Shown here: piece after piece, positions 1 to 42,293 of the stretch
Layout of the letters: every line of letters starts with the position of its first letter
Position numbering within the stretch: position 1 is the stretch's first letter
Assembly (NCBI GenBank): GCA_023431385.1
Contig: JAEYWA010000153.1
Coordinates: forward strand, 7,272-71,271
DNA from: Bacillota bacterium
Lineage (GTDB): Bacteria; Bacillota; Clostridia; Acetivibrionales; DSM-1351
Direction: 5' to 3'
DNA: 64,000 nt
Notes under the pieces: model-generated
Told to the model about the DNA's origin: nothing
The model's input: the letters and a program-made list of their open reading frames with translations, nothing else
The model's database searches: none
Program-made: the position numbers and the translations under genes

Positions 1-166
1 ATTTCAACATTACAAAATATTCGTTCAGACTACTGATTTCAAGAAGTTCGGCACGTTTTTCAATTCTCTTTTGTACAAAATACTTCTTATTAATCTCATA
101 ATGAATTCCAGTTTTTTTGTAAATCAATTTTACAAACTTATCATATAATTCGTCTGTTAGTATCAT
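1..166 (-). CDS. cheR: CheR chemotaxis methyltransferase, N-terminal fragment; the gene continues past the left edge
   Basis: Not in the ORF track because it is truncated. Minus-strand translation from ATG 166..164 gives MILTDELYDKFVKLIYKKTGIHYEINKKYFVQKRIEKRAELLEISSLNEYFVMLK, which fits the CheR N-terminal helical domain pattern. Its start overlaps the stop of the HEAT gene as ATGA. Confidence 0.7.
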   Translation of the reverse strand, partial: MILTDELYDKFVKLIYKKTGIHYEINKKYFVQKRIEKRAELLEISSLNEYFVMLK

Positions 167-2082
167 CTTGCCACCTCTGTCTTCAGCAAGGCTTCTTTGG
201 CTGCTTCCCTCACCTCTTCGACCTGATCCTCCAATAATCCCTGCAAAACAGTATCTGCATTACTACTCCCGAACAAGCCCAATGACCTAACGGCTGCAAT
301 TCTTGTTAAGGTTTCCTGGCTGCCTGCAGCAGTAACTACAATATTAAATGCAATGTCACTTTGAAATTTATATAAGTTTGAAATAATGTCCATCCTGTTA
401 ACGGTATTTGATTCATTGTGATACAATTTCTCTAACAAATTCAGGCTTCTGACATCAGGTATTTTAATTAGAGCTTTTATTGCTTTTCTCCTGACCACAG
501 GAGACGGGTCGTTAATCATTGTATTCATAAAGCTAAAAAACTCTCCCTCTGAAGAGTACTCAACTATACTTATCAATCCGGCACGGACACCCTCATTTAT
601 ACTGTCCATCCTGGTATTAATGTGTTTCCAGCCATATACAGTGTTCAGTCTGAAGAGAGCTTCCAGAGCTTCCATACCTTCTTCTCCCGGATTACGCCCA
701 ACAATCTCTTCAAGCAATTCAAGGCTTATTTTTCCATTATATAAAACAAGCTTACGGACTACGGCTTTTCTTACTTTTTTGTTTGGGTGCTCCAGCTTCA
801 TCAGAAGAAAGTCAATATTCGGTGTCCCACTTGCACACTTGCTCTCAACAGAAGCAAGCTCTGCTTCTTCACTAAAGTCTGTCAGACTTTCAAGAAGGTG
901 TGAGTTATTATACGAAGTAATTTCAGCAACAATTCCTATAGCCTGACTAGACACATCTCTGTCTTGCGAGCTGCACAGTTTCTCAACAATAAAGTTAAAG
1001 CCCTCAATTTCTTTTTTGTATATAAGCCTTAATCCCATCAATATCAATTCAGGTTCCTTGCACTCCAGTAGTTCATTAATAAATGAAGGCGGAATACTGT
1101 CCAGCTTATACAAGAGATCACTGAGGTTTTCTATGAAGAACTCCTCTCCCTTGTTTAAATCATATATTTCTATAATGTGATGGAGGAAGAAATTCATCTG
1201 TAAATTAACAAAGGCATTTATCGAAACAAGTATATTCTCTGAATCCTTGTAGTCCCAATGCTCTCTGAAAAATCCTTTAATTTCTTCAAATTCACTTTCA
1301 GGGAGACTGAATATACTATTATTTACGATTAGGCTGCTTAACCCAAAGATCATGTTTTCATCACTAATACAAAAATTCTTTGAATATGTTTGAAGTATTC
1401 GGATAATATCTGGATATGATCCGATAGATCCTAATGATCTTACAAATGTATTCATTAAGATATTTTTTTCTACAGCAGAAACATTCATTGAAAATATTTT
1501 ATCTGCAATGACTTCTGATACTTCTTTTGTACCTAGACTTTCAAAAGTACTTAAAAGTGAGTTTATAACCCAGACACTGCTTGTGTCATTAAGCATATCC
1601 AGTAACTTACCTTCAGCCTCCTTGTATGCTTGCTCAGCAATAACTTCCAGAGCTGCTTCCACAACATTTTCATCCGAATCGTCCAAAGCCGAAAGTGCAA
1701 TTTCACAACTGTTTTTCCCCTTGATGTATTTAAGTGCATCCAATGAGAATTTTCGAATATTCCTATCTTTGTCGCACAACTTCATTTTTAGAGATGGTAA
1801 AGCCTTTTCATCTAATATAACCAGCAGCTCTATTGCTAAATTTCTTATGTAGGCATCATCTGAATAAAATAGATCAGTAACAAGTTCAGCAGTTCTTTCA
1901 AGTTTTACACGACTAATTTTCTTCGCAAGCTTCTCCTGCTTATATCTCTCCTTTTCTGTTGTAAGACAATGAATAAGAACCTCCATGTCCTGATTATTAT
2001 TTTCACCATCAAATCCCACAGCAAGTCTGTCAATAATAGTAGTTAGCTCCTGTCCGGCAAATATTTCTTCTCTATTCGTCAT
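163..2082 (-). CDS. HEAT/PBS-lyase-type repeat protein
   Basis: Repeated HEAT-like units: DKDRNIRKFSLDALKYI, DDSDENVVEAALEVI, HPNKKVRKAVVRKL, NDPSPVVRRKAIKAL, EDQVEEVREAAKEAL. The start is trimmed from 2241 to ATG 2082 (MTNREEIF). The longer ORF would overlap the upstream gene by 170 nt; the trimmed one overlaps by 11 nt. Confidence 0.7.
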   Translation of the reverse strand: MTNREEIFAGQELTTIIDRLAVGFDGENNNQDMEVLIHCLTTEKERYKQEKLAKKISRVKLERTAELVTDLFYSDDAYIRNLAIELLVILDEKALPSLKMKLCDKDRNIRKFSLDALKYIKGKNSCEIALSALDDSDENVVEAALEVIAEQAYKEAEGKLLDMLNDTSSVWVINSLLSTFESLGTKEVSEVIADKIFSMNVSAVEKNILMNTFVRSLGSIGSYPDIIRILQTYSKNFCISDENMIFGLSSLIVNNSIFSLPESEFEEIKGFFREHWDYKDSENILVSINAFVNLQMNFFLHHIIEIYDLNKGEEFFIENLSDLLYKLDSIPPSFINELLECKEPELILMGLRLIYKKEIEGFNFIVEKLCSSQDRDVSSQAIGIVAEITSYNNSHLLESLTDFSEEAELASVESKCASGTPNIDFLLMKLEHPNKKVRKAVVRKLVLYNGKISLELLEEIVGRNPGEEGMEALEALFRLNTVYGWKHINTRMDSINEGVRAGLISIVEYSSEGEFFSFMNTMINDPSPVVRRKAIKALIKIPDVRSLNLLEKLYHNESNTVNRMDIISNLYKFQSDIAFNIVVTAAGSQETLTRIAAVRSLGLFGSSNADTVLQGLLEDQVEEVREAAKEALLKTEVAR

Positions 2083-3280
2083 CAAATAACACTTCCTTTG
2101 CAACTTTAATAAGTTTCTGAAAGCATTCATCGGATCGAAATACTTCCCGAACCGCTTCCATTTCGTTTCTATAAACCTTAAATTCTTCAACAGCCCGGAT
2201 AGAATCAAAAATATTGGTAATCCTTCTATCGTATAGGCCACCCACTATGATTGACATCTCAATATTGTCTATTGATAATTGCCTCTTTAACTCTATTAAT
2301 TCCTTTATTTCGTTTTCATGAATAATAATCAATTGGCTGGTATCAATGAAAACCATCAAGGTTATTGCCTTTTTGACAGAGTTGACAAACGTCTTCATCT
2401 GATTAGTGAATCCATCCTTTTCCGGCCTAAAAGTTCTTATCAGGTATTTGCTAAATACCCCGTACAAGTCCTGAGTAATTGTGGTACATCTTGTACTATT
2501 TGCCCCTCCATTACTCAGATAAACGTCGTTACACTTTAATTTACTCCTGGATAAATCTACTACATTGATCCTTTCTATATAGATAATATCAAAGCAGGTA
2601 TACAGTTCAGTTTTCTCCATATCAGTACTTATGATAATATCCAGAGTTTTCATTTCGATATCAACTGAAGTATCTTTAAAATATTGATCGTCTACACTGG
2701 AATATGTAAGGGAACCGATTTCTTCAACATTTTTTAAAATCATCATGAAAACTGGAGATACCATTGGAGCATCCTCCTCAAGGAAAAAGGATATATAAAA
2801 CTTGTTTTTTCCTTTATTCCTTTGATTTAGGAGTGAAGCTACAAGTCCAACCTCAGTTTGTTCTACTACTGATTTTTCCTGCTTACTTTTGTTAGCTTTA
2901 ATAAGCCCCTCAATGGTATCACTAATTCTGTATGCAGCACTGTCCAGACTTTCCTTAAGTTCAAGGGAACATGTCCCACTTTTATTATCCAGCATCTTTT
3001 TAACGGTATCCAAGCCCTCAAAGCATGTCGAAACTATACTTTGGTCAAACAGAATATAACCATTCCTTGCGTAATCAAGCATATCCTCTATCTTATGCAT
3101 CAAGTTTCCGATATCATCAAATCCAATCACATGGGAAGAGCCTTTAATGGTATGTGCTATTCGAAACAATTCATTTATTTCTACAGAAGAGTATTCTTTT
3201 TCAAGCCTTATGATACAATCTTCCGCCTTTTGCATTAATTCATCGGCTTCTTCCGTGTAAGCCCGAAGCATAGCATCCAT
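2072..3280 (-). CDS. Orphan Hpt (CheA-P1-like) protein with an uncharacterised middle region and a STAS-like C-terminal region
   Basis: The N-terminus LFRIAHTIKGSSHVIGFDDIGNLMHKIEDMLD is the Hpt/P1 phospho-His motif (HxxKG). There is no dimerisation, HATPase or P5 domain. The C-terminal ~110 aa (ITLMVFIDTSQLIIIHENEIKELIELKRQLSIDNIEMSIIVGG...IRAVEEFKVYRNEMEAV) resemble a STAS fold by eye. The start is probably ATG 3280, with an AAAGGTGG Shine-Dalgarno sequence 7 nt upstream; GTG 3292 is the alternative. Confidence 0.65.
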   Translation of the reverse strand: MDAMLRAYTEEADELMQKAEDCIIRLEKEYSSVEINELFRIAHTIKGSSHVIGFDDIGNLMHKIEDMLDYARNGYILFDQSIVSTCFEGLDTVKKMLDNKSGTCSLELKESLDSAAYRISDTIEGLIKANKSKQEKSVVEQTEVGLVASLLNQRNKGKNKFYISFFLEEDAPMVSPVFMMILKNVEEIGSLTYSSVDDQYFKDTSVDIEMKTLDIIISTDMEKTELYTCFDIIYIERINVVDLSRSKLKCNDVYLSNGGANSTRCTTITQDLYGVFSKYLIRTFRPEKDGFTNQMKTFVNSVKKAITLMVFIDTSQLIIIHENEIKELIELKRQLSIDNIEMSIIVGGLYDRRITNIFDSIRAVEEFKVYRNEMEAVREVFRSDECFQKLIKVAKEVLFDDE

Positions 3281-3294
3281 AATAACTACCACCT

Positions 3295-3705
3295 TTACTT
3301 AACCATCTGTGTAATAGACTCTCTCCATCTCTCAAGCTTTTTGATTGAATAGTCAATAATTTGCATCACGTGTTCAACACTTTTAAAAGGTTTTAGAATA
3401 TAGTCATTGGCCCCAAATTCCAGTGAACTTAACGTTTTATCCATGGTGGAGTAACCTGTCATCATTATGACCTGGGTAAGCGCATCATAGCTTTTAATTT
3501 CTCTCAGCAGCTCAATACCATCCATTTCAGGCATTACAATATCAGTGAGTACAATATGGTATTTGTCTTTTTTAACTTTTTCAAGGGCTTCTACTGCACT
3601 TTGTGCTGTGTCTACTGTATAGCCATCCAATTTCAGGTGTTTTTTTAAAGTACCTACTATACCCTCTTCATCATCTACGATCAGTATTTTATATTTTTGC
3701 TTCAT
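3295..3705 (-). CDS. Single-domain response regulator (REC)
   Basis: KILIVDDEEGIV...HIVLTDIVMPEMDGIELLREIK...MMTGY...KPF are the canonical receiver motifs. No output domain. Confidence 0.9.
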   Translation of the reverse strand: MKQKYKILIVDDEEGIVGTLKKHLKLDGYTVDTAQSAVEALEKVKKDKYHIVLTDIVMPEMDGIELLREIKSYDALTQVIMMTGYSTMDKTLSSLEFGANDYILKPFKSVEHVMQIIDYSIKKLERWRESITQMVK

Positions 3706-3735
3706 AAGGGACCTCCATTATTTATATAAATTTAT

Positions 3736-4740
3736 TTACAATCTTAACTGATGTTCTGGTAAAGTAATAATAAACTCTGTGCCCTGATTTACTGTACTTT
3801 TGACCTGAATATCTCCACCGTGCTCCCGGATAATTCCATAGACGATGGACAGCCCCAGTCCAGTTCCTCCAGAGTCTTGATTTGTGGTAAAGAAGGGATT
3901 AAATATATTATTTAAGTTCTTCTCATCAATCCCACATCCATTATCACGTACACTAATGAGTAATTTACTTATCCCTTCTCTCATTACGCTTATTTCTACA
4001 AACCCTGCTTTGTTCAAATCGTCAGCTTTAATGGCTTTAATAGAATTCAAAAATAAATTAATAAAAATCTGTTCCAACTGCTGTCTGGATCCATAAATGA
4101 GAAACTGGTCTTTTTCAATGTTGCTCCTTAAGCTTACTTTGTTTCTCACGAATTCATTTTTTACAAGCTTGTAAGCTTCAGTTATACAACCATATAAATC
4201 AAATGCTTCGTAAGATACCTTTTCCTGCCTTACAAAAAACTTTAAACCGCTGATAATGTCCATTATTCTGTCAGTTCCCTTATACATGGATTCAAAGGTA
4301 TCTTTAAACTCTTCAACATACGGAGTAGCATCATCACTTATCAATAAACCGTTTTTCCACATTATATTCAAATACTTTTGAAGCAGCTCAATATTTGCTC
4401 TAATATAAGTAGTAGGATTATTAATCTCATGAGCTACACCTGCTACCAGTTGCCCCAAAGAGGCCATTTTGTCAGCCTGGATTAATGCTTGCTCCTGTAC
4501 CTTGATTTTCTCTACCTGTTCCCTATTTGATTTCTTCAATTTTTCAAGAAATTCGGTCTTTTGCTTATCATTTATCAAAAGCTCATTGCTATTTTTCTCA
4601 ATCTCCTGTAAAAGAGCGAGAACCCCGGTGTTGGTTTCTAATAACTCTTCTATTAGTCCCTTAACCTCTTTTTTAAGATTCTCATTTTCTTTTTGTAAAT
4701 TACAAAAAAGCAGGTAGTAAAGCATATGTTCTCCATTCAT
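3736..4740 (-). CDS. Cytoplasmic sensor histidine kinase (coiled-coil N-terminus, HisKA, HATPase_c)
   Basis: H-box LVAGVAHEINNPTTYI, N-box FINLFLNSIKA, G-boxes RDNGCGID and GGTGLGLSIV. No hydrophobic transmembrane segment. Confidence 0.9.
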   Translation of the reverse strand: MNGEHMLYYLLFCNLQKENENLKKEVKGLIEELLETNTGVLALLQEIEKNSNELLINDKQKTEFLEKLKKSNREQVEKIKVQEQALIQADKMASLGQLVAGVAHEINNPTTYIRANIELLQKYLNIMWKNGLLISDDATPYVEEFKDTFESMYKGTDRIMDIISGLKFFVRQEKVSYEAFDLYGCITEAYKLVKNEFVRNKVSLRSNIEKDQFLIYGSRQQLEQIFINLFLNSIKAIKADDLNKAGFVEISVMREGISKLLISVRDNGCGIDEKNLNNIFNPFFTTNQDSGGTGLGLSIVYGIIREHGGDIQVKSTVNQGTEFIITLPEHQLRL

Positions 4741-4751
4741 AGATTCACCAC

Positions 4752-5786
4752 TTACAGAACTGCGACTAAAATTGTCGCATCATCGTTATGTCTCTCATAC
4801 TCGTTAAAAACCATATTACATAATAGCGATGGGCTTTTCGCGACCCCTTCAGCGTAATTTTCAACTTCCCATTTTGAGGTTATGCCATCAGAACACAGTA
4901 CTAACATATCCCCGTTACTAAAAATGTGTCTTCTGGCTTTACAGCTTCCACTGTATGCTCCAACATAACCGTTATATGACAGCAGTTTCACTGTTGAACC
5001 TGCCGTTATATGCCTGCAATCAATATTACCAATGGATATCATTTCAAATTCATTTGTGAATTTGTATATTATAAATAGAGCTATTACCGCTCCTCGAGTA
5101 TTCTTCAAGGCAGTGTTTGTTTGTTTAATAATATCTTCAATAGAATTCTGTGTATTTTCTTCAATTATTTTTACTGCACGGCTGGCGGCTTCATGTGCTT
5201 CCATTCCATGACCCAATCCATCAACTACGGCAATAATATCCCTATCCTCAAAGTTCCTTATATAATAACAATCACCGTTCACTAAAAAGCCTGTATAGGG
5301 TCTGCTTATCACACTGACTTTTATTTCTGAACTACCTATTCCTGAGGTATCAGTTAATGCCATGCTCCATAGCCTAATTGTTAACGTCGTTTCCACCGGC
5401 ATCCCTTTTTTTATAACATTTTCAGTATTTGATCTAATCTCAAAAAAGTCACTAAAGCTATTTATTGTTCCAAATCCATCATCAATTGTTCCATTAATGG
5501 ATGCGCCATCTTTCTGCCCCTCATTAATGTCTTCTTTTCCTTGAACCTTATCCTCAGAAATGATTTCGATTCCAACCCTGTTGTCGGCAGTAATCTGAAA
5601 AAACCTGATCTTCCCATTTATAGATTTATGTTTAACAATATTACTGCAAAGTTCACTTATAACAATAGAAGTCTCTGTTATTTCCTTATTGGAAAACTTA
5701 AGCGATTTCATCATATCCGCTATTTGCCTTCTTATAAATCCAGTGTCATAAGTGCCCCGCACTTCATATTCGAAAATAAGGTTCAC
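4752..5786 (-). CDS. Fusion of an RsbW/RsbT-like HATPase domain and a PP2C (SpoIIE-type) phosphatase; RsbX/RsbU-position protein
   Basis: N-terminus ETSIVISELCSNIVKHKS (anti-sigma-kinase type HATPase). C-terminus GDCYYI...AVVDGLGHGMEAHEAAS...VLCSDGI...DDATILVAVL (PP2C metal-binding Asp motifs). It starts 4 nt after the rsbT stop. Confidence 0.8.
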   Translation of the reverse strand: MNLIFEYEVRGTYDTGFIRRQIADMMKSLKFSNKEITETSIVISELCSNIVKHKSINGKIRFFQITADNRVGIEIISEDKVQGKEDINEGQKDGASINGTIDDGFGTINSFSDFFEIRSNTENVIKKGMPVETTLTIRLWSMALTDTSGIGSSEIKVSVISRPYTGFLVNGDCYYIRNFEDRDIIAVVDGLGHGMEAHEAASRAVKIIEENTQNSIEDIIKQTNTALKNTRGAVIALFIIYKFTNEFEMISIGNIDCRHITAGSTVKLLSYNGYVGAYSGSCKARRHIFSNGDMLVLCSDGITSKWEVENYAEGVAKSPSLLCNMVFNEYERHNDDATILVAVL

Positions 5787-5790
5787 CTCC

Positions 5791-6237
5791 TTAAAGCCAC
5801 TTCTTGATTATAATTTTTGTTCCCTTGTCTGTTTGTGAAGTAATGCTGAAATCATCCATTAGTCTTTTGCTTCCCGGAAGTCCCAGACCCATTCCCTTAC
5901 CTGTAGTAAAACCTTCCTCCATGGCTTTATCAATATCCGGGATTCCAGGACCCTTATCCTCAAAGGTAATCATTATGCCGCGTTTTGTGTCACTGGATAC
6001 ATCCTCAATAATGACACAACCGGTTGAAGCATATACATAAATGTTCCTTGACAGTTCACTGACAGCAGTAATAATCCTTGTCTGGTCTGTTATACTAAAA
6101 TTCATGTTCCTTGCTGCTTCGCGCGCTCGTTGCCTGGCTGTCACGATATCCTTTTCATCTTTTATGTGGATTTCAAATAATTTCAATTTATTCCACTCCC
6201 TATTCCAGGTCTTCAGCACATATTTCTTCAAATCCAC
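5791..6237 (-). CDS. rsbT: RsbT-like stressosome serine kinase / switch protein
   Basis: ARQRAREAARNMNF...AVSELSRNIYVYA...FEDKGPGIPDID...GKGMGLGLPGSKRLMD. Small HATPase of the RsbT type, directly after rsbS. The GTG start at 6237 overlaps the rsbS 3' end, so the exact start is uncertain. Confidence 0.8.
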   Translation of the reverse strand: MDLKKYVLKTWNREWNKLKLFEIHIKDEKDIVTARQRAREAARNMNFSITDQTRIITAVSELSRNIYVYASTGCVIIEDVSSDTKRGIMITFEDKGPGIPDIDKAMEEGFTTGKGMGLGLPGSKRLMDDFSITSQTDKGTKIIIKKWL

Positions 6238-6595
6238 TGGCTTTTACATGATCTTCAAGTATTTTAATCCCTATATCAGCATTTAACGCAATTTCTACAC
6301 CCTGAATATCCAGTCCTAACTCTTCCAGGGTTATGGCAACGTGTGGCTTCATACCGGTTAACACGGCTTTTGCCCCTAAAAGCTGTACCATTTTTACCGT
6401 TTCGGAAATAACCCTTCCCAGATAGGAATCGATAATGTCCAGCAGAGAAATGTTAAGAAGTACTCCCTTGGCACCAGTTTCATATATCTTGTCAAGAATA
6501 CTCTGCTGAAGCGACAGAGCCATATTGTCATTAATATCTCCCTGAAGAGAGACTATCAATATTTTATTCATTAAAATCATAGGGATACTGTCCAT
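6200..6595 (-). CDS. rsbS: RsbS-like single-STAS stressosome scaffold
   Basis: ILIVSLQGDINDNMALSLQQSIL...GVLLNISLLDIIDSYLGRV...LLGAKAVLTGMKPHVAITLEELG. STAS domain with the conserved D-S phospho-site context. Confidence 0.85.
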   Translation of the reverse strand: MDSIPMILMNKILIVSLQGDINDNMALSLQQSILDKIYETGAKGVLLNISLLDIIDSYLGRVISETVKMVQLLGAKAVLTGMKPHVAITLEELGLDIQGVEIALNADIGIKILEDHVKASGFEEICAEDLE

Positions 6596-6618
6596 TTTTA
6601 ATGCTCCATTCCATTTAG

Positions 6619-7482
6619 TTACTTTACCAGCCTGACGGCCTTAAATCCTGCCATCTCCATAGCCAGCTTTATACCATCGGCCATCACTGCTCTGGTGGTA
6701 ATACAAGACAGATCTACTCCGAGATGAACCATGGTTTGAGCAATCACAGGACTGATTCCGGTAATAATTAGCTCCGCTCCAAGGAGCTTTGTGGCACTAG
6801 CTGTTTTCAATAAATGATTTGCCACCAGTGTATCCACGGTAGGGATCCTGGTTATATCAACTATTGCAACCTTTGACGAAGTAGAAACAATCATTTCCAG
6901 TAGCTTTTCCATGATCATCTGTATTCTTTTACTGTCCAGAGTACCAATCAAGGGTATGGCTAAAATCCTTTCCCAGACCTGTATTATAGGTGCAGATAAT
7001 TCAACCATGTCCTGTTGCTGACGGATGATAATTTTTTCACGTTCTCTAACATACATATCGAAAGTATATAAACCCATTCTGTCCAAAATTTCTGAGATTC
7101 TGAAAGCTTCTCTGCTTAAGTTTAGATAGTCAGCGTAGCCGATTTTACTAAGCTCATCGAATATTATCTTTTTCAAAGAAAATATGAAAGTGCTGACTTC
7201 TACCTGGTTCAATCCTTTAGCTACCGCAATTTTGGAGTAGTCATCCAGATTTTTTTTCGCATCGCTTAGTTCCGGTACCCTCAAAGAAAGGTCCCCTTCG
7301 TACTCAATCAGCATTAAAAATGTATGAATAATCTTATTACACAGGCTGGCTACTTCACTTTCGGTAAACAATTCATTTATATTAAGTGACTTGTTTTGGA
7401 TAGTATCAATCCAAATGCCAGCTAGGTCATCCTTTATCTGAAATAGAATTTCATTAGTTTTACTGATAGTTGAATTATTCAT
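6619..7482 (-). CDS. rsbR: RsbR-like stressosome sensor (N-terminal helical sensor domain plus C-terminal STAS)
   Basis: The C-terminus ELSAPIIQVWERILAIPLIGTLDSKRIQMIMEKLLE...VAIVDITRIPTVDTLVANHLL...GAELIITGISPVIAQTMVHLG is the RsbR STAS signature, including the VDT phospho-site. The ~150-aa N-terminal helical domain is consistent with an RsbR_N (globin-like) fold. Confidence 0.85.
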   Translation of the reverse strand: MNNSTISKTNEILFQIKDDLAGIWIDTIQNKSLNINELFTESEVASLCNKIIHTFLMLIEYEGDLSLRVPELSDAKKNLDDYSKIAVAKGLNQVEVSTFIFSLKKIIFDELSKIGYADYLNLSREAFRISEILDRMGLYTFDMYVREREKIIIRQQQDMVELSAPIIQVWERILAIPLIGTLDSKRIQMIMEKLLEMIVSTSSKVAIVDITRIPTVDTLVANHLLKTASATKLLGAELIITGISPVIAQTMVHLGVDLSCITTRAVMADGIKLAMEMAGFKAVRLVK

Positions 7483-7490
7483 ATGTCCTC

Positions 7491-8585
7491 CTATTTTCTT
7501 ACCGCTTTTGTTATGGCATCCGCTATTCTATAAGAAGGTACTACTATTTCTGCACCACCTCTTTCTATAGCTTCTCTTGGCATACCGAAAACCACTGCAG
7601 TGGACTCATCCTCAGCAATGGTCACACCGCCTGCTTTTCTTATTTTTACCATAGCGTCAGCCCCGTCGTCACCCATACCCGTCATAAGAACTCCAATAAC
7701 GTTCGGCCCTCCGAAAGTATCCAGTACAGACTCCATTGTTACATTTACAGAGGGCATAAAAACTGTTTTAGGACTACTGGGAAGCCTTATTATTCCACCT
7801 TCTCCGCGTACTACCAACTGGTATCCTCCTGGTGCCAGAAATCCCCTTCCATTATGCAGAACATCTCCAGCTTCCGCTTCTTTTACAGGAATCCGACATG
7901 CGGCATTCAGCCTTTTTGAAAAGGATGACGTAAATGATGGCGGCATGTGTTGAATAATTATTACCGCCGCTTTCAAGTCGTGCGGAAGCATAGGAAGCAC
8001 TTCCATAAGAGTACCCGGTCCACCGGTAGAAATACCTATAACCACCACCTTTGTTAATTCACTGCCCTTCTGCGGTCTCCTCGTTTTGAGAGGTTCTGCT
8101 ATCCTGGGTGACAAATAATTGCTACGTCTTGCTACTCTATCTCTAATATTTTTTTTGTTTACACTTTTATAAGCCAGCTTAACCTTTTGTATGATTTCTC
8201 TTCCTACTACGTGCAGATTGGAGGAAACAGTTCCTGATGGCTTTGTGACATAATCAAAAGCCCCCAACTCCAATGCCTCAAAGGTGGTCAATGCTCCTTC
8301 TGCAGTGAGTGAGCTTATCATCAGAACAGGGGTTTCTGGATACTCACTCAATATGTATTGCAAGGAAGTTAATCCATCCATCACAGGCATGTTGATATCC
8401 ATTGTAACTACATCCGGTTTTAAATCCTGCACTTTTTCAATTGCATCCTGTCCGTCTCTGGCTGTTCCCACCACCTCAAGACCTGAATCAGTCATGATTA
8501 TTTCCTTAATGGACTTTCGCATTAAAGCAGAATCATCTACAATCAGTACTTTTATTTTTTCGCTCACAAAACTCACCTGCCGCAT
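7491..8585 (-). CDS. cheB: CheB protein-glutamate methylesterase (REC plus methylesterase)
   Basis: KVLIVDDSALMRK...VVTMDINMPVMDGL (REC); VVIGISTGGPGTL, IIQHMPP, MTGMGDDGA (Ser-His-Asp esterase motifs). The start could instead be GTG 8567, preceded by AGGTGA. Confidence 0.9.
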   Translation of the reverse strand: MRQVSFVSEKIKVLIVDDSALMRKSIKEIIMTDSGLEVVGTARDGQDAIEKVQDLKPDVVTMDINMPVMDGLTSLQYILSEYPETPVLMISSLTAEGALTTFEALELGAFDYVTKPSGTVSSNLHVVGREIIQKVKLAYKSVNKKNIRDRVARRSNYLSPRIAEPLKTRRPQKGSELTKVVVIGISTGGPGTLMEVLPMLPHDLKAAVIIIQHMPPSFTSSFSKRLNAACRIPVKEAEAGDVLHNGRGFLAPGGYQLVVRGEGGIIRLPSSPKTVFMPSVNVTMESVLDTFGGPNVIGVLMTGMGDDGADAMVKIRKAGGVTIAEDESTAVVFGMPREAIERGGAEIVVPSYRIADAITKAVRK

Positions 8586-8657
8586 TTTTCAAAATTATAG
8601 CTAACCCATGGAGCATAGACCATAAGCCCCATGGGTAATGCCTGTAACATCCTGAAT

Positions 8658-10133
8658 TTAACTATTACTTAATACTTTACCTATATCCAGAATCAGAATC
8701 ATTCTCTTACCGCCATCCAGCTTTCCAACACTCTCTACATAATCACTGTCAATCCCGCTGCTTAAAATGTCCGGAGGTGCCTGAATCAATGTTTTTTCAA
8801 ACCGTAGTACTTCTGAAACAGAATCAACAATTATACCTGTCCTCTTTCCACTGAAATCGACGATAATAATCCTTGTAGCGTCGGTCACCTGCTTTTCTGC
8901 GAGATTAAAAAGCCTTCTCAAATCCAGCGCAGGAATTACATTTCCTCTCAGGTTGACAATGCCTTCAATATAATAGGGGGCTCTGGGTATCTTGGTAACC
9001 TCTGTCATTCTATTAATCTCCTGTACATTAGCTATTTTAATGCCATACTCTTCCATGTCAATTTTAAAGGTCACCAACTGCTCTTCGTCAAGAATCTGGA
9101 CGGTTATACTTTTTTCCTCAGCCTGTTCTTCACAGGTCTCACTATTGCCTGTTATTGCACTTATCTCATCAGCGGATATCAGCTTTGCAGGTTCAAGCAA
9201 AAGAATCATTCTTTTTCCATTATTGAGCTTAGCTACACCCTTAAGCTGCTCCCCGCTGTGCTTAGAGAATTTTGGCGGAGGCTGAATAATACTTGTCTGT
9301 ACCCTTAGAACTTCTGAAATTTTATCCACCATAATTCCAGCAGTGAAGCTGCCCATGTCAACTACAAGAATTCTCGTATGGTCATCGATTTCCTTATAGT
9401 CCATTCCGAAGTAAGTCCTTAAGTTTATTATTGGGAGCAGGTTATTACGTATGGATACTACTCCCTCAATATGAGCCTCACAATTTGGAACTTTAACTAT
9501 TTGTGGAATACGGATGATTTCTTTTACATCCATAATCCCAATGGCATATTCTTCATTATTAAGAAGAAATGAAACCAACTGTTCTTCATCAATAGACTCT
9601 GTTATCGCACTGCTTATTATAGATTCTAATTTCTGTTTATCAGCATTTCGTCCGTTTAGTTTCTCTTTTCCGATTGTATTGACCTTCAAGGCCTTTACAA
9701 CATCTAAAAGCATGACCAACCTATTTCCATTGTCCAGCTTAACAACACCATTCAAATAATCTGAATCCACATTTTTTACTATCTGTGGTGGTTCCTCAAT
9801 GTCAGCTGTACTGACTCGCATTACTTCCGATACCCTGTCTACAATAACTCCAGTAGCCTTACCTTCAACATCTATGACCAGAACCCTGCTGTTTTCATCC
9901 TTAATTTTCCTTTCTAAATTAAACCGGGTTCTTCCATCAATAATAGGCAGGACATTTCCCCTTAAATTGCAGGCACCCTCCACATACGCTGGAGCATTCG
10001 GAACCTTTGTTATTTCAGGAACTCTGATAATTTCCTTAACATCCATGATATCAGCCCCGAATTCATCATCACCAAGAAGGAAGGTAACCAACTGGCGCTC
10101 TGTAAGGCCGGTATTATTTATACCAGTTGCCAT
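8658..10133 (-). CDS. Triple-CheW-domain coupling protein
   Basis: Three full CheW repeats (about aa 10-150, 185-325, 348-490). Each begins with QLVTF/QLVSF...EYAIGI/EFGADI...V.EI.R and ends with G(K/N)R.(I/V).LL(D/E). Confidence 0.85.
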   Translation of the reverse strand: MATGINNTGLTERQLVTFLLGDDEFGADIMDVKEIIRVPEITKVPNAPAYVEGACNLRGNVLPIIDGRTRFNLERKIKDENSRVLVIDVEGKATGVIVDRVSEVMRVSTADIEEPPQIVKNVDSDYLNGVVKLDNGNRLVMLLDVVKALKVNTIGKEKLNGRNADKQKLESIISSAITESIDEEQLVSFLLNNEEYAIGIMDVKEIIRIPQIVKVPNCEAHIEGVVSIRNNLLPIINLRTYFGMDYKEIDDHTRILVVDMGSFTAGIMVDKISEVLRVQTSIIQPPPKFSKHSGEQLKGVAKLNNGKRMILLLEPAKLISADEISAITGNSETCEEQAEEKSITVQILDEEQLVTFKIDMEEYGIKIANVQEINRMTEVTKIPRAPYYIEGIVNLRGNVIPALDLRRLFNLAEKQVTDATRIIIVDFSGKRTGIIVDSVSEVLRFEKTLIQAPPDILSSGIDSDYVESVGKLDGGKRMILILDIGKVLSNS

Positions 10134-10150
10134 AACTATTCCTCCGTTCT

Positions 10151-12091
10151 TTACATATTCTGAAGTTCATCGGCCAATCCTGATATCTCTTCGATGGCTT
10201 CTGCAAGTTCCTGCATACCTTTTGCCTGTTCAGAGGCTGCGGTTGATGCCTGTTGTGCTCCGCTGCTGGCCTCCTGGGCGGCAGTAGCAATTTGGTCAAC
10301 ACCCTTCCTTGCCTGCTCAAGGGCTATCATAGACTCTTCTGAACCCCTCTGAATTTCTTTTGCACCTGATAGTATTTTAATCATATTCTCTTCAATTACA
10401 TTCAGGTTGTGAGTAGTCTTTTTGGCCTTCTCAACTTCGGCAAAGGAGGTTTTGCTGGAAATATCCGTATCAGCCGATACCCTTTGGATTTGGTTCTGTA
10501 TACCTCTAACAAGGTCTTTTATCTTATCTGTATTTTCTGCCGACTCATTGGCAAGTGCCCTAATATCTCCTGCAACCACTGAGAATCCTCTTCCAAATTC
10601 TCCTGCCCTGGCAGCTTCTATAGAACCATTAACAGCCAGCATATTAGTTTGTATAGTGACATTCACAATGGCATCTACGATTTTATCGATTCTTCTTGTA
10701 GTCTCTTCAAGACTCTTTATGTTCCTTGCCGCTACAACACTGGCTTCAGCTGAAGAAGAAATTCCGGCAATCATATTATCAACAGCTATTTTATTGGCCT
10801 CCAATAACTTTTGGAGTTCCTCTATCTTATCCCCTGAGTAGCCTGACCTATCACTCATTTGTTTAGAAGCAGCAGCAAGCCTTTCTGCCAGATTTGCTGC
10901 TTTCTCAGTAAGCTCTGCCTGAGCCCTGGCACCAGAAGATATCTGCTCCATAGCTTTTAATATCTCTCCAGCTGTCGAGTTTGCCTCCTCCACATTTGCT
11001 GACAATTCTTCTGAAGCTGCCGCTAGTGACTCTGAGGATTTCTGAGCATCTGTAGATACCTTGAGGTCCTCGGCCATCTGAGCAAGATCAGCAGCACCGG
11101 CATTTAATTCGTTGAAAGCCTTATTCTGTATCTGGATGGATTTTTCTACTTCTTCAGCAGCGCTGCTCTGCTGCTCTGCTGCTGCTGCAATTTGCTCGGC
11201 AATACCAAGGAACTCACCCGCTCCTTTATTTGCATCCACTGCATTTTGTGATACCTCTGTTACATATTTTTGTACCTGTACAATCTCCTCATTGATTTTA
11301 ATCAGGTCAGCAGTAGTTCTCTTTGCTTTCTCAACTTCATCATTGGCCGCGTTGCCGGCATTTTCAATATCTACTACAACAACTTTTACATTGTTTTGTA
11401 TTTCAGTTACAAGTTCTCTTATATTCCTTGCAGATTTCTCAGAGGTTTCTGCCAGGTTTCTGACTTCATCGGCCACAACAGCAAATCCCTTACCGTGTTC
11501 GCCTGCTCTTGCTGCTTCTATGGCAGCATTAAGTGCAAGAAGATTAGTCTGGTCAGCAATTCTGACAACGGCCTGTACAATTTCTCCGATCTCATTGGAT
11601 TGCTTTTCAAGTTCTCCGACCAGTTTAACCGACTCCATATTTGTATCAGCTGACTCTTTAATTCCTTTAATCATTAACTCGATATCGTTGGATGTATTTT
11701 CTAGTAAATCCTTAGCTATATCAACTCTTTCAAGCGAATCCTTTGCGTTTATGTCAGCAACTACTGAAGCCTTGTCGATCTGGTTAATGGCAGCCCTTGA
11801 CTCTTCTGCCGCAGACGAAGCCTCACTGGCGCCCTTTGCGATTTGCTGCATAGTTGCGCCTAATTCTTCTGCAGCACTGCTGGCTTCTTCTATCCCTGAA
11901 GCCAGCTGTTCTGTAGCTACAGCTATTCTTTCAGCCAACTGCTGCTGTTTTGCCAATGTTCTAGCCCTTACCTTATCCTGCGCTTGTTTCCTCGCAAGTT
12001 CTCTCTTTCTCTCCATTTCATCTGTTGCCGATGCTAGTGCAGGTCCTTTTACACTTCTTTCGCTTGAAGGTTTTGCAAGCTTTTTTTCCAT
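10151..12091 (-). CDS. Soluble methyl-accepting chemotaxis protein with two tandem signalling (MA) domains, DosM-like
   Basis: No transmembrane segment. There are two hairpin-tip motifs exactly 300 aa apart: [35 protein letters not shown] (aa 181-215) and [35 protein letters not shown] (aa 481-515). Several methylation-site-like EE/QQ heptads are present ([27 protein letters not shown]). Confidence 0.85.
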
Positions 12092-12210
12092 AACAAAACA
12101 ACCTCCTAAAATTATTAACTTTTACATGAAAGTTTATTTGATTAAATGCACTTAAATACAGACCTTGCACATCTATATTTCTCGTACATCACATCCTTAG
12201 ATAGGAATAA

Positions 12211-12465
12211 CTAAGTTAATGAGCCCCCGATTTCAAGTTCAGGATTAAAAATTATGTAGAACATATTCACTCCATCTACTGTAGGTTCATTCCCTAAATA
12301 CCCATCCTTATATAGTGGAGTTATCTTTTGTCGAAGTTCTTCAATACTGCACATAATATTGTTTTGAACAAGTAGCCTGTGAATTTCTGCCAGTGTGTTA
12401 ACCTCCGATTCACTGCCCTTTATGTATTTTAAAAATTCCTCATCCGTCAACTGGAACATAAACAT
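12211..12465 (-). CDS. Hypothetical 84-aa protein inside the che-type cluster
   Basis: ORF only. It sits 28 nt after cheY and is co-directional. No recognisable motif. Confidence 0.35.
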   Translation of the reverse strand: MFMFQLTDEEFLKYIKGSESEVNTLAEIHRLLVQNNIMCSIEELRQKITPLYKDGYLGNEPTVDGVNMFYIIFNPELEIGGSLT

Positions 12466-12493
12466 TATCCTCCTTAATATATGTAAATTTATG

Positions 12494-12853
12494 TTAACTT
12501 TTGAATTTAGCCAGAGTTTTTATTACAACCTCTTCCTTATACGGTTTTATAATAAATCCTTTAGCTCCACTCATAATTGCTCTTTGTACGTATGACTCCT
12601 GCCCCATGGCAGAAACAATAACAACTGTGGGTTTATATTCCAATCTACTAATCTCCTCCATGCACTCAATTCCATCCATTTCAGGCATTGTAATATCTAG
12701 TGTAACTATATCCGGATTTAGTTCCTGTATTTTTTTTAACGCTATCCTTCCGTTTTCAGCCTCTCCAGCAACATGAAACCCATTTTTCTCCAGAATTTGT
12801 TTCAGCTGCATCCTAATAAAAGCAGCGTCGTCCACAATTAATACAGATGTCAT
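12494..12853 (-). CDS. cheY: CheY-like single-domain response regulator
   Basis: VLIVDDAAFIRMQLKQIL...IVTLDITMPEMDGIE...VSAMGQ...GAKGFIIKPY. The start is trimmed to ATG 12853 (MTSVLIV), with an AAGGGG Shine-Dalgarno sequence 7 nt upstream. Confidence 0.85.
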   Translation of the reverse strand: MTSVLIVDDAAFIRMQLKQILEKNGFHVAGEAENGRIALKKIQELNPDIVTLDITMPEMDGIECMEEISRLEYKPTVVIVSAMGQESYVQRAIMSGAKGFIIKPYKEEVVIKTLAKFKS

Positions 12854-13409
12854 AATAACCCCTTTCCAAGTAACAGATAATATCAAGTTTGAGCAATCGG
12901 TGATTTCCTTTTAATCTTAAGCCTTATCTACATTTTGTTAATAATTTTACATAAGTATTTTACATAAACTAGTATTAAAGCATATTTTTACCTACTAAAT
13001 ATTTACTATTTGGTATTACTACATAATAAGTAATAGATAATATAAAGATACTATAAAGAGATTTTCAGCATAGTTGCCATAACTAATTAACTTTTTTCAC
13101 CTGATGAAATTATGATAAAATTCAAAGATATGTATCAGGTGAGTATTCACTCGCCTGATGTAATTATAAAGTCCTATAGTTCAATATGTCAAGTCCCATA
13201 CTTATTTTTCCTATTGATTTTGCAATTTTTTAGAATTTGTTATGTTATGGAGAATTGCATAGAAGAAGTTGTTCAGTGTTTCTAGCAAATGAATTGTTTG
13301 ATAAATCCAAGAGATTACCGATTTAAAGCACATTAAAAAACCGACATTAGTGTTACGGCCTACTCGTAGGAGTAAATAAAATCATTATATTGTGTATAGA
13401 GATGGCTAC

Positions 13410-13441
13410 AAAAATGTGAAGGGGTCAATCTTGTCCCCTCC
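13410..13441 (-). terminator. Probable rho-independent terminator after the REC gene
   Basis: Minus strand reads GGAGGGGACAAGATTGACCCCTTC followed by ACATTTTT. It is a GC-rich hairpin with a U-run about 20 nt after the stop at 13463. Confidence 0.45.
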
Positions 13442-13462
13442 ACAAACTATCGAATAATTAAA

Positions 13463-13855
13463 CTAAAGTACCGCCAGCTTTCTCATGGCCTCTTCCAGCT
13501 TATTTAGTTCAATTGGCTTATTAACATAGGCTTCCAGCCCTGTCGTAAAAGCACTCATAACATAGTTTGTCTCTCCCAAAGCAGTAGTAACTATGATCTT
13601 TGTGCGATTTGCCTCTTCAATTCCTCTGACTTCCTCCAACTCTCGAATTGTCTTTAATGCCTTGATCCCATCAATTTTTGGCATCATGACATCAAGGCAT
13701 ATCAAATCATAGGGTTTTCCCGTATCAAGCCCCAGGATAAATGCCTCAATCGCTTCAATACCATCTATTGTTAGATCACATTCACCGTAAAAAGACATAA
13801 ATTTGAATATAAACTTCCGACTGGCAAAGTCGTCTTCTGCTATCAATATTTTCAT
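13463..13855 (-). CDS. Single-domain response regulator (REC)
   Basis: KILIAEDDFASRK...LICLDVMMPKIDGI...TTALG...NKP. It starts 2 nt downstream of the hybrid kinase gene. Confidence 0.85.
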   Translation of the reverse strand: MKILIAEDDFASRKFIFKFMSFYGECDLTIDGIEAIEAFILGLDTGKPYDLICLDVMMPKIDGIKALKTIRELEEVRGIEEANRTKIIVTTALGETNYVMSAFTTGLEAYVNKPIELNKLEEAMRKLAVL

Positions 13856-13857
13856 CC

Positions 13858-16068
13858 CTATTTTCCCCTCGTTTGTAATATATTTTTGAATGCATCACTT
13901 ATTTTCGGCATCTCATAAATAATACCTTTCAAATCTTCACGTCTTGCCGCAAGCTCTATTGTGAACGCAATTCTTTTTAACTCATCTGCACGAATACTGG
14001 CAGCAAGCTTTTTAATTATATTAGCTTCTTTCTCTATTGTGGTTATATCGTTGTTATCCAGAGCTTCTTTCATACTTTGGATGTGCTGTCCTATCCTTTC
14101 ATGCAGTTCAATGGTTTCCGTTGGATTCATGATCTTCTCATCAGTCTGTAGAGAGTCTAGGATTTCCCTCTCCTTTATTTTCTTAGCATACCTGTCAAGG
14201 ATAGCGTATAACTCTTCCATCCGCACCGGTTTTGCTATATATTCATCCATACCAATAGATAAAAAGCGTTCTTTATCTCCTTTTAAAGCATATGCGGTCA
14301 CTGCAACAATCGGAATGTGTTTTACCTCGCCTTCCATCTCCCGGATACGTTGAGTTGTATCAATACCATCAATTTCCGGCATTTTAATATCCATAAAGAT
14401 AATATCGAAATTCTCCTTCTTAATGATATCAAGGGCCTCTTTACCATTTGGTGCAATTTGCATTGTGTGCCCTTTATTCGATAACATCTGTTGAAACACA
14501 TTCTGGTGTACCTCATCATCTTCTACCAGAAGGATTTTCAGAGGAATATTCAGGTTTTTAACCAGGTCCTTATCGGCTTCTTTCTTTACAGGTACTTGTC
14601 CAACCATTAGAGGTAAAGTAAAGAAAAAAGTACTTCCTTCTCCCTTTCTGCTTTCTACCTGTATTGTACCGCCCATCCTTTCCACAAGCTGTTTAGAAAT
14701 TGCCAGTCCAAGGCCTGTTCCGCCAAACTTTCTGGTTATCGAACCATTAATTTGACTAAAGCACTGAAACAGTCGGTCCATTTCACTTTCATCAATTCCT
14801 ATGCCAGTATCTGACACTCTGAATAAAAGCTCAAAATTGTCCGATTTCTTAGAATGCTTTTCAATAGATAGTACAACCCCCCCGTTTTCAGTAAACTTCA
14901 ATGCATTTCCGATAAGATTATCCAAAATCTGTTTTAACCTCATGGAATCACCTATTAAATACGTCGGTATTCCAGATGAAAACTGATATTCCAAAGAAAG
15001 ATGCCTATGGTCTGCTTGAACAGAGTGAGCTTTTATTACATCCTCAATTAATCTATAAATATTAAAATTCGTATTATCGATAGTTAACTTCCCCGCTTCC
15101 ATTTTAGAAAAGTCAAGAATATCGTTGATTACCTTTAATAATGAGTCTGCGCAGGATTTTGCAACATTTAAATTATCCCTTAGTTTTTTATCAATATCTG
15201 ATACTAATGCCAAATTGAGCATTCCAATTATTCCATTTAAGGGAGTACGTATTTCATGGCTCATATTTGCCAGAAATTCGCTCTTTGCCTTATTCGCATT
15301 CTCTGCAGTCTCCTTTGCTCCCTCTAATTGCTTTTCGGCAGCTTTAAGATCTGTAATGTCATCAATGATTACCATAACCTGTTTTTCTCCAGAAACAGCA
15401 ACGGGTACAAAATTAATTTTATACCAAAGCTTTTTGTTTTTCCCGTTGATTATCAAGGTTTTCTGAATAATTTCATTATTGAGAGGTTCCCCTGACCGCA
15501 GGACCTGCCTTATTAATTTCCTAAGAGGCTTGGGAGTTACACCATGGCTATATCCCATCATTCTAACAAAAGCCGGGTTCATCTTCCTAACAACAATATT
15601 TTCGTCCACTATTGCCATTCCTAATGGATTTGACTCAAACTGAATTTCTAAGCTTCTCCATTCTCGGCGGAGTTCTTCCTCTATTGTTTTAATTCGTGTA
15701 ATATCTCTGAAAATGATAATAATCCCGGTAATATCATGCTCGGAGTTCCTTATTGGTGAACAACTGGCTGATATAAGTTTTTTTATCCCGCTTCTTGAAA
15801 TCAGAACGATATTACTCTGAAGTTCAACCGCTTTTCCAGCATCCAAAGCCATAGTAATCGGGCTTTCCATAGCTTCACCAGTAGTCGCATTTACTACTGA
15901 AAACACCTTGTCGAAAGCCATGCCAGTAGCAGTTTGTGATGACTGTTCTGTTATCTCCTCGGCAGCAGAGTTTATAAACGTTATTACTCCATCCAAATCG
16001 GTAATGATCACACCTTCTCCTATACAAGCAAATACTTCCTTAGAGTTTAATTCTTTCATCATTTTCAC
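13858..16068 (-). CDS. Hybrid sensor histidine kinase (PAS-PAS-HisKA-HATPase-REC-Hpt-like)
   Basis: H-box [16 protein letters not shown]; DTGIGI and [11 protein letters not shown]; [12 protein letters not shown]...[14 protein letters not shown]...VTAY...KP. The C-terminal four-helix region [20 protein letters not shown] aligns with the Hpt motif but has Asn where the His is expected. Confidence 0.85.
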
Positions 16069-16134
16069 CCTCTTATCCTGTACACCTCGGGTATGTTCAC
16101 CTTATCCTTGAATCAACAAAAAACTTGAAAATAA

Positions 16135-42137: not shown

Positions 42138-42293
42138 ATTTTTGCTCCTTATGTGCATTTTTCTGCATAAATATAATAACATTTTACATTATTTTTCAAA
42201 TTTATTCAAATAAATTATCGTTAGAATTTACCACTTAAGGGTATATTTATTATATATAGTTATGATGTCCTACGGTAAATGGAGGTTAATAGT

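Follow-up and report, generated by a model that had tools for sequence, protein, structure and literature searches.

A stressosome-type gene cassette between cheB and cheR of a chemosensory operon of predicted class F9 in a Clostridia bacterium

Introduction

The chemosensory systems of class F9, to which cluster I of Vibrio cholerae belongs (PMC9321776, PMC7534058), are the closest described relatives of the operon studied here, which occupies one end of a 64,000-nucleotide (nt) stretch of DNA from a Bacillota bacterium (GenBank assembly GCA_023431385.1, contig JAEYWA010000153.1, positions 7,272 to 71,271 of the forward strand; hereafter the window) and carries the genes of a stressosome between cheB and cheR. 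About 2 % of complete bacterial genomes, drawn from many phyla, encode an F9 system (PMC7534058, PMC9321776). Two protein architectures are unique to the class, the chemoreceptor DosM with two signalling domains in tandem and the adaptor CheW3 with three concatenated CheW domains, and the gene order of the class is given as "MWB...RYA" in table S1 of the same study, where the B…R slot is a variable position that holds unrelated non-che genes (PMC9321776). The F9 arrays of V. cholerae are purely cytoplasmic and double-layered, and they are formed only under starvation or low oxygen (PMC9321776, PMC7534058). Deletion of CheA of this system caused no phenotype and both its input and output are unknown (PMC7534058, PMC9321776); 98 % of DosM homologues are devoid of any sensor domain, and the physiological role of F9 is described as "still poorly understood" (PMC9321776, PMC7534058).

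Stressosomes outside the sigma-B paradigm, for their part, lack defined outputs. In the case of the Vibrio vulnificus stressosome it was proposed that RsbT acts on a downstream sensor kinase (PMC9237108), and a CheY-like neighbour of a Vibrio stressosome prompted speculation about the control of aerotaxis (PMC4976288). The host of the operon described here is a Clostridia bacterium; among named organisms, Petroclostridium sp. X23 (family Oscillospiraceae) is closest to it. A preliminary description of the window had noted the unusual position of the stressosome genes, and it had proposed that the array and the stressosome feed a phosphorelay which does without CheA. We compared the operon with related loci and found that a cheA gene does belong to it, that the receiver and the phosphotransfer protein downstream of the stressosome genes are part of the chemosensory core, and that the stressosome genes together with a histidine kinase are an addition to this core.

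Results

The stressosome cassette

The window begins with 14 co-directional open reading frames (positions 1-12886, all on the minus strand, as are the genes below), and the domains assigned to them in the preliminary description were borne out by Pfam profile searches. Eight of these genes lie between cheB (7491..8567; receiver plus methylesterase, Pfam CheB_methylest 1.7e-59, Response_reg 1.3e-26) and cheR, whose first 55 codons are all that the window contains before its edge cuts the gene (1..166; CheR_N 5.1e-12). The first five, from rsbR to the histidine kinase gene, are referred to as the cassette.

The cassette starts with rsbR (6619..7482), coding for a protein with RsbRD_N and STAS domains according to Pfam. 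Its best matches in the PDB are RsbR of V. vulnificus (7o0i_B, 2.7e-30) and RsbR of Listeria, and the segments 'ligTlDskr' and 'vDTlva', which we take to be the two phospho-Thr sites, align with them. The product of rsbS (6200..6595), a scaffold protein with a single STAS domain (Pfam STAS), is most similar to B. subtilis RsbS (6jhk, 1.2e-27); its DIIDS is aligned on DMIDS, the Ser of which is presumably the phospho-site Ser59. The third gene, rsbT (5791..6186, TTG start), codes for a 131-amino-acid (aa) anti-sigma-type Ser/Thr kinase (Pfam HATPase_c and HATPase_c_2) that matches SpoIIAB structures and TIGR01925 and keeps the N box as well as the G1 (DKGPG) and G2 (GMGLG) boxes. The 131-aa form agrees with the Petroclostridium protein, and the three genes follow each other in the order rsbR-rsbS-rsbT with gaps of 23 and 13 nt.

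In the product of the fourth gene (4752..5786, GTG start; 344 aa), an RsbT-like HATPase_c_2 domain is fused to an RsbX-type PP2C phosphatase (Pfam HATPase_c_2 and SpoIIE). The PP2C half is closest to MtX of Moorella (3zt9, 4.4e-15) and RsbX of B. subtilis (3w40, 2.4e-14), and it retains the metal-binding DG…DG…DD motifs. The N-terminal half is a paralogue of RsbT, in which the glycines of G1 and G2 (residues ~75-115) have been lost (DKVQG, DDGFG) only in the window and its three nearest relatives; it looks like a recent conversion of a kinase into a pseudokinase. Fusions of HATPase_c_2 and SpoIIE of about 340 aa are widespread, with 161 representatives at E<=1e-30, all of them full-length. The last gene of the cassette (3736..4725) codes for a HisKA histidine kinase with a coiled-coil N-terminus followed by HisKA and HATPase_c domains (Pfam), with neither a sensor domain nor a receiver; AtoS/ZraS are its top NCBIfam matches.

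By sequence criteria, the cassette thus qualifies as a bona fide RsbRST/RsbX-type module, and the preliminary description was right in placing a complete RsbR/RsbS/RsbT set with an RsbX-type phosphatase between cheB and cheR of a receptor/CheW/adaptation set. Components of a sigma-B-type output (RsbU_N-PP2C, RsbV, RsbW or a sigma factor) were found neither in the operon nor elsewhere in the 64-kb window. A free-standing version of the cassette, with a distant member of the fusion family, exists on another contig (L052), where the order is STAS–STAS–RsbT–HATPase_c_2/SpoIIE fusion–hybrid histidine kinase with its own receiver, and where the neighbours, a TonB-dependent receptor/SusD pair, are of the Bacteroidota type. 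The insert is thus a stressosome cassette of the two-component type, such as has been discussed for Vibrio.

The operon beyond the window

Directly downstream of the cassette lies the gene of a single-domain receiver, here called REC136 (3295..3705; Pfam Response_reg 5.1e-30). An exact-sequence look-up of REC136 retrieved ten contigs, the longest of which (ENA ERZ27268735 k141_12458, here L001) is a metagenome contig that is 99.993 % identical to positions 1-13705 of the window and runs 6.7 kb past its left end. On L001, cheR (274 aa) is followed by the genes of a 122-aa receiver, CheA, a further receiver, CheX, a CheX/CheC protein, a ParA-like ATPase and a second CheW3. The complete cheA, two genes past the edge of the window, begins 399 nt after the stop codon of cheR and is read in the same direction; a single cheY, flanked by gaps of 11 and 18 nt, separates the two. 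Its product (L001 14763-16994; 743 aa) is a canonical P1-P1-P3-P4-P5 CheA with two Hpt stretches, H-kinase_dim at residues 351-419, HATPase_c at 467-606 and a CheW-like P5 at 612-739; no P2 was detectable in it by Pfam. The window therefore holds the first two-thirds of an operon of about 21 genes, and the apparent absence of CheA is an artefact of the window edge, since the window ends 166 nt into cheR.

This bears directly on the proposed split phosphorelay, in which the HisKA kinase, a free receiver and a free Hpt protein would replace CheA and be fed by the array and the stressosome. It is true that no CheA kinase core is encoded in the operon within the 64-kb window, and as a statement about the window proper "no CheA in view" was correct; for the operon it was not. 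A canonical cheA following cheR in one operon is also what the preliminary description had itself named as evidence against its proposal. Moreover, cheA is present in every related locus that extends far enough, and most genomes combine REC136 and the Hpt protein with CheA while having no HisKA kinase there. Both are core genes that are present where the rsb genes are absent. The replacement of CheA is thus refuted, unless the strain of the window had lost cheA through a deletion that the near-identical contigs do not have.

The gene order in the window and L001 reads M-W3-B-[8 genes]-R-Y-A-Y-X-X-ParA-W3. The receptor (10151..12091) is a DosM-type protein of 646 aa with two MCP signalling domains (Pfam MCPsignal 3.9e-64, two stretches). 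No hydrophobic or transmembrane segment was found in it, the maximum 19-residue hydropathy (KD19) being 1.11, in agreement with the earlier reading of a soluble receptor with two signalling domains. The adjacent gene (8658..10133) codes for a CheW3 adaptor of 491 aa (Pfam CheW 7.7e-108, three stretches). With these signature architectures and this gene order the operon can be classed as a member of F9. Among the Firmicutes F9 clusters given in table S6 of PMC9321776 are those of Clostridium saccharobutylicum [DosMW3B.RYAYXX] and Paenibacillus [DosMW3B.YRA.W3].

The letter 'S', left undefined, appears in three of the F9 orders of the same table S6, those of Thermacetogenium, Paludibaculum [DosMW4B.RYSYA] and Geovibrio [DosMW3BSY.RYAY]. 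In the last of these it stands directly after cheB and before a cheY, which is the position of the insert described here; it may denote a STAS protein. We also noticed that the second CheW3 at the operon end, after the ParA-like ATPase, has an N-terminal extension of about 100 aa (L001 19133-end; L007 18708-20447). A ParP-like tether was considered for this terminal CheW-domain protein and rejected, as Pfam shows three CheW domains, that is, a second CheW3.

Core genes and insert in related loci

To separate core from insert, we compared the neighbourhoods of diverse relatives of the Hpt protein encoded next to REC136, a genome scan of species representatives, and tblastn synteny with all 21 operon proteins, which covered 25 related loci (20 had come from the genome scan). 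More than 140 homologues of the Hpt protein were retrieved, and all those with a named source are from Bacillota. The core order is cheY–orf82–dosM–cheW3–cheB–REC136–Hpt protein–[HEAT]–cheR–[cheY]–cheA–…–parA-like–cheW3, and wherever a related locus extends to this position, REC136 adjoins the Hpt protein. In most genomes compared, cheB abuts REC136 with no rsb genes or kinase between them; such direct cheB/REC136 junctions were seen in C. estertheticum, C. bowmanii, C. frigoriphilum, Lutispora, Acetobacterium spp., Paenibacillus, Gordoniibacillus and R. herbifermentans. Because they are present where the rsb genes are absent, REC136 and the Hpt protein belong to the chemosensory core, and the stressosome genes and the HisKA kinase to an add-on that is in all cases placed at the cheB/REC136 junction.

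The full rsbR-rsbS-rsbT-PP2C-HisKA kinase block was found in the window, in the closely related metagenome-assembled genome (MAG) OH_CDB_54 (L013), in Petroclostridium sp. X23 (L007/L030) and in a metagenome contig (L051). The cassette is also present in a second close relative, MAG OH_CBB_105 (L012), where the contig starts inside it, at rsbT. A reduced form in locus L016 consists of an RsbS-like STAS protein, an RsbT-like kinase and the HisKA kinase, and in locus L011 the HisKA kinase alone occupies the cheB/REC136 junction. Altogether, the cassette was present, whole or reduced, in four of the 20 species-level genomes and in one metagenome contig, and another metagenome contig keeps the kinase alone. 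The arrangement is not an assembly artefact, since Petroclostridium sp. X23 and related MAGs share it.

A neighbour-joining tree was calculated from concatenated DosM, CheW3, CheB, CheR and CheA with 200 bootstraps. The window, L013, L007, L016 and L011 formed one clade (200/200 bootstraps), whereas L051, with the cassette at the same junction, grouped with cassette-less Clostridium loci (200/200 bootstraps). According to this tree, the cassette would have been either gained twice at the cheB/REC136 junction or retained there despite many losses, and for this reason we argue that its position is non-accidental.

In the complete genome of R. herbifermentans (L010, CP061336) we noticed that dosM is called as two genes (4926-6832; 283 and 332 aa, one signalling domain each), as is cheA (14109-16327; a 342-aa Hpt part and a 394-aa kinase core). 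Frameshifts or pseudogenes could account for this, or else DosM and CheA are truly split in this species.

The kinase and REC136

The kinase and REC136 appear to be of matching two-component families: the kinase resembles AtoS/ZraS, and the top NCBIfam match of REC136 is AtoC, with ZraR ranking seventh. The kinase gene lies directly upstream of REC136 in every kinase-bearing locus, and when the cassette is reduced, the kinase beside REC136 is the part that is retained (L016, L011). Its 'VAHEINNP' motif with the H-box His is invariant. On the side of the receiver, all six kinase-bearing loci keep residues D11, D12, D55, T83 and K105 intact, and seven of the 14 kinase-less ones have lost D55 or K105 (L008, L009, L017, L020, L022, L023 and L025; for example D55A in Acetobacterium L022 and L023, and K105E in C. 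estertheticum). The significance of this contrast is marginal (Fisher p = 0.051), and phylogeny confounds it. The other seven kinase-less loci keep an intact REC136, and CheA or a free P1 may therefore be its normal donor. In the half of the kinase-less F9 operons with these losses REC136 is probably a pseudo-receiver, which implies a phosphorylation-independent role in many species.

The N-terminal ~40 residues of the kinase (YLLF..L.KEN..L..EVK.L.EEL.ETNTGVLAL) are conserved in four loci that encode RsbT, whereas this segment is absent from the kinase of L011, a locus without RsbT. The position of the kinase, the residues of REC136 and this N-terminal segment together suggest a route from the stressosome through the kinase and REC136 to P1. 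The conserved phospho-accepting residues of a His-Asp-His phosphorelay are all present (the H-box His of the kinase, the Asp pocket, Thr and Lys of REC136, and His43 of the Hpt protein).

It is also conceivable that the cassette and the operon share a location without being coupled. The cassette would then be a self-contained mobile module in the permissive B…R slot, with its target elsewhere or with the kinase serving merely as a phosphatase or sink, and REC136 and the Hpt protein would work with CheA alone. Such modules do exist, as the free-standing cassette of L052 with its own receiver domain demonstrates, and the F9 B…R slot is known to hold unrelated genes (PMC9321776); REC136 is also independent of this kinase, being intact in half of the kinase-less loci. 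On the other hand, the cassette or the lone kinase sits at the identical junction upstream of REC136 in two separate core lineages. The kinase of the operon has lost, or lacks, a receiver of its own, unlike the free-standing version, and it is the kinase beside REC136 that reduced cassettes retain. The gaps of 4-30 nt and the shared orientation likewise argue for co-transcription. Co-location without coupling therefore seems to us an unlikely explanation; if it were correct, the finding would be reduced to an unremarkable insertion in a variable operon slot.

The Hpt protein

The gene downstream of REC136 (2072..3280) codes for the Hpt protein of 402 aa, consisting of a CheA-type P1 domain with His43, a P2-like domain and a STAS-like domain (Pfam Hpt 2e-12, weak P2). 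An AlphaFold2 model was built from 50 homologues (mean pLDDT 78.6) and showed three domains, which were compared with the PDB by Foldseek. Residues 1-131 matched CheA P1 (E. coli 2lp4, 3e-7; Salmonella 1i5n; Thermotoga 1tqg), and the P1 model superposed on P1 of Rhodobacter sphaeroides CheA3 in complex with CheY6 (3kyi, TMt 0.85). The middle domain matched CheA P2 (1u0s_A, TMt 0.85), and the C-terminal domain matched STAS folds (TM1442, SpoIIAA and SLC26 STAS) with TMt ~0.6 and E 0.02-0.1. Pfam recognized Hpt in all 50 family members, P2 in 24 and STAS in 16 (best E 8.5e-6). The STAS-like part mentioned in the preliminary description is thus supported, as an assignment that is structural and of moderate confidence. 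His43, in AHTIKGSS, is invariant in the 50 sequences. A profile comparison of the Hpt family with RsbS gave no alignment, and we make no claim about an equivalent of the phospho-Ser.

The 406-aa longest-reading-frame form of the protein was discarded, as it has a wrong start codon and its exact-sequence look-up gave no match. We also rejected the idea that a short (~400 aa) and a long (~485 aa) form of the protein track the cassette: the short form occurs in R. herbifermentans, which lacks the cassette, and the long form in L051, which carries it.

The classical partner of a HATPase_c_2 kinase is a STAS domain, as in the pairs SpoIIAA/SpoIIAB and RsbS/RsbT. The structures of such pairs are the ones matched here, and the operon encodes two HATPase_c_2 domains and three STAS-type domains. 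A partner switch can thus be envisaged, in which RsbT or the RsbT-like domain of the phosphatase would bind the STAS-like domain of the P1-P2-STAS protein and sequester it, release it or tether it to the stressosome core. The loss of the ATP-binding glycines from the kinase-like domain of the phosphatase in this lineage is what one would expect of a pure binding module. However, every member of the family has the STAS-like domain, and the operons of most members encode no HATPase_c_2 protein; the domain must therefore have another primary role. At the sequence level it shows no similarity to RsbS, and L011 keeps the kinase without any RsbT or STAS partner. We consider such a switch improbable. 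Its consequence, which we hold to be just as improbable, would be that stress gates the CheA-derived phosphate reaching REC136 and the CheYs, with the HisKA kinase being secondary.

Other features of the operon and the window

The first gene of the operon is cheY (12494..12853), coding for a single-domain receiver of 119 aa (Pfam Response_reg 2.5e-31), orthologues of which were found in 17 related loci. Upstream of it, in a gap of 609 nt, lies a candidate promoter TTGACA-18-TATAAT (13163..13192, minus strand) that matches the consensus at 12 of 12 positions. Between cheY and dosM is orf82 (12211..12459), a small conserved protein of 82 aa without a match in Pfam or NCBIfam; we noticed that it is kept at the same position in at least 11 related Bacillota F9 loci with 44-96 % identity. 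The gene between the Hpt protein and cheR (163..2082) codes for a HEAT-repeat protein of 639 aa (Pfam HEAT_2 1.6e-32). It is an optional core gene, present in 12 distinct related loci, and it overlaps both its neighbours, by 11 nt on the side of the Hpt protein and by 4 nt on that of cheR.

When the best-supported, homologue-backed start codons were used, the gaps between the operon genes ranged from -11 to +119 nt, and GGAGG-like ribosome-binding sites preceded most of the starts. The upper limit of the range reported earlier (-38 to +119) was thus correct, but the -38 between rsbS and rsbT came from the start of the longest reading frame, the true gap being +13 nt; accordingly, the overlaps described for Hpt/HEAT and HEAT/cheR remain and that for rsbS/rsbT disappears. 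Terminator-like sites in the operon were rarer than in shuffled sequence (4 observed, 7.6 expected), in keeping with the earlier remark that no convincing internal terminator is present. A tRNA scan of the window found none.

The 609-nt gap with the candidate promoter separates cheY from two genes upstream on the same strand (13463-16068), which code for a hybrid kinase of 736 aa (2×PAS, HisKA, HATPase_c, REC and a weak Hpt) and a receiver of 130 aa. In L051, a PAS-HisKA-REC hybrid kinase follows the second CheW3, and a recurring association of hybrid kinases with F9 is possible. Further away, two tandem transmembrane chemoreceptors with 4HB_MCP_1, HAMP and MCPsignal domains (47392-49107 and 49409-51169, minus strand) presumably serve a different chemosensory class of this organism. 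A row of genes for a BcsB-like protein, a family-2 glycosyltransferase, a DUF2334 protein and a degenerate GGDEF protein (52100-58067, minus strand) forms a cellulose-like exopolysaccharide cluster, and a separate GGDEF protein is encoded at 41019-42182. The remainder of the window is ordinary chromosomal content, including a TetR regulator, MFS transporters and a penicillin-binding protein.

Discussion

The combination of a stressosome with a chemosensory operon appears to be new, its parts being of known kinds. A search of the literature for stressosomes together with chemotaxis, chemosensory systems, CheB or CheR, and for STAS together with Hpt and CheA, revealed no such arrangement, with the limit that coverage was incomplete, subscription journals being thinly represented, and absence from it is no proof; within this limit, the remark of the preliminary description that it knew of no described case still holds. 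STAS or Rsb components are likewise not mentioned in the main text or the supplementary tables of PMC9321776.

We think it probable that the stressosome provides a second, receptor-independent input into an F9 pathway that retains its own CheA. According to this model, RsbR, RsbS and RsbT would form a stressosome, a pseudo-icosahedral complex of ~1.8 MDa, from which RsbT would be freed by stress. The freed RsbT would activate the adjacent kinase through the conserved N-terminal helix of the latter, and the kinase would phosphorylate REC136. Phosphorylated REC136 would exchange its phosphate with His43 of the P1-P2-STAS protein, by which the phosphate would join the pool supplied by CheA to the CheYs and CheB. 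The fusion phosphatase would reset phosphorylated RsbS and RsbR in the manner of RsbX, and its kinase-like N-domain would act solely as a handle for binding STAS domains. In this weaker form, with the stressosome feeding a HisKA to REC to Hpt branch that leads into the chemosensory pathway, the original hypothesis is plausible.

Several points weigh against this model. All of its steps beyond the presence of the genes are drawn from gene order and conservation. The REC136 contrast is the borderline, phylogenetically confounded one given above, and an intact REC136 is kept in seven kinase-less loci too. The argument from the N-terminal segment of the kinase depends on one contrasting locus, L011. 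The ATP-binding motifs of the RsbT-like N-domain are degenerate here and intact in Petroclostridium and distant homologues. Confidence in the STAS assignment of the C-terminus of the Hpt protein is moderate, and the residue at the expected phospho-Ser position of this domain is not reliably aligned. Finally, the class assignment, in the classification of Wuichet and Zhulin as updated in PMC9321776, is drawn from signature architectures and gene order.

As a more speculative extension, to which we give a low probability, the stressosome and the cytoplasmic F9 array could be one machine. The stressosome would supply the missing sensory input of F9 by way of the kinase, REC136 and P1, and the STAS-like domain might dock on RsbT or on the stressosome core; F9 systems would then generally serve the integration of stress, with the B…R slot as a plug-in site for inputs. 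Whichever form is correct, the locus offers a handle both on the input of F9 and on the outputs of stressosomes that do not use sigma-B. The graded series from the core to the kinase alone, to STAS-RsbT-kinase and to the full cassette points to the parts that are likely to interact, and the union of the two systems in the cultured Petroclostridium sp. X23, of which the complete genome is available, amounts to a testable wiring diagram for both.

Among chemosensory systems, cluster I of V. cholerae (DosM VC1403, CheW3 VC1402, CheA1 VC1397) shares with the present operon the soluble receptor with two signalling domains and the triple-CheW adaptor. The F9 clusters of PMC9321776 have in common with it the M-W3-B…R-Y-A order, non-che genes in the B…R slot and additional CheY/CheX downstream, and the Firmicutes examples in table S6 already show a second CheW3 and YXX tails. 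In contrast to the published F9 clusters, the B…R slot holds eight genes here, among them a complete RsbRST/RsbX-type cassette and a HisKA kinase. The cytoplasmic cluster of R. sphaeroides (split CheA3 P1…P5/CheA4 P3-P4-P5, CheY6, PpfA) is similar in its cytoplasmic array, which is predicted in our case, and in its ParA-like partitioning ATPase. In both, moreover, a P1 and the kinase core are encoded by different genes, and this P1 has a receiver of its own. It belongs to a different chemosensory class, however, and CheA is complete here, with two P1 domains of its own, and the free P1 protein, which CheA may trans-phosphorylate, carries P2 and STAS-like domains instead of P5.

Among stressosomes, that of Bacillus subtilis and Listeria and the MtR-MtS-MtT-MtX module of Moorella thermoacetica share with the cassette the DxIDS motif of RsbS, both Thr motifs of RsbR and the MtX/RsbX-like PP2C. 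Unlike the sigma-B stressosome loci of Bacillus and Listeria, the operon lacks genes for RsbU, RsbV, RsbW and sigma-B, and the output here would be a HisKA kinase, compared with a PP2C-sigma cascade in Bacillus and a GGDEF protein in Moorella. The cassette also resembles the Vibrio-type stressosome (V. vulnificus/V. brasiliensis; PMC9237108, PMC4976288), in which RsbR-RsbS-RsbT and a PP2C are likewise followed directly by a histidine kinase and then a receiver, and in which RsbU_N, a sigma factor and RsbV/W are also missing from the locus. In Vibrio, RsbR has a globin, whereas RsbR here has a non-haem RsbRD_N; in addition, the phosphatase described here has an N-terminal RsbT-like domain and the kinase has no PAS or other sensor domain. 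Above all, the receiver that abuts the kinase is here a core gene of a complete chemosensory operon, with the genes of CheA, CheB, CheR, the receptor and CheW lying to either side.

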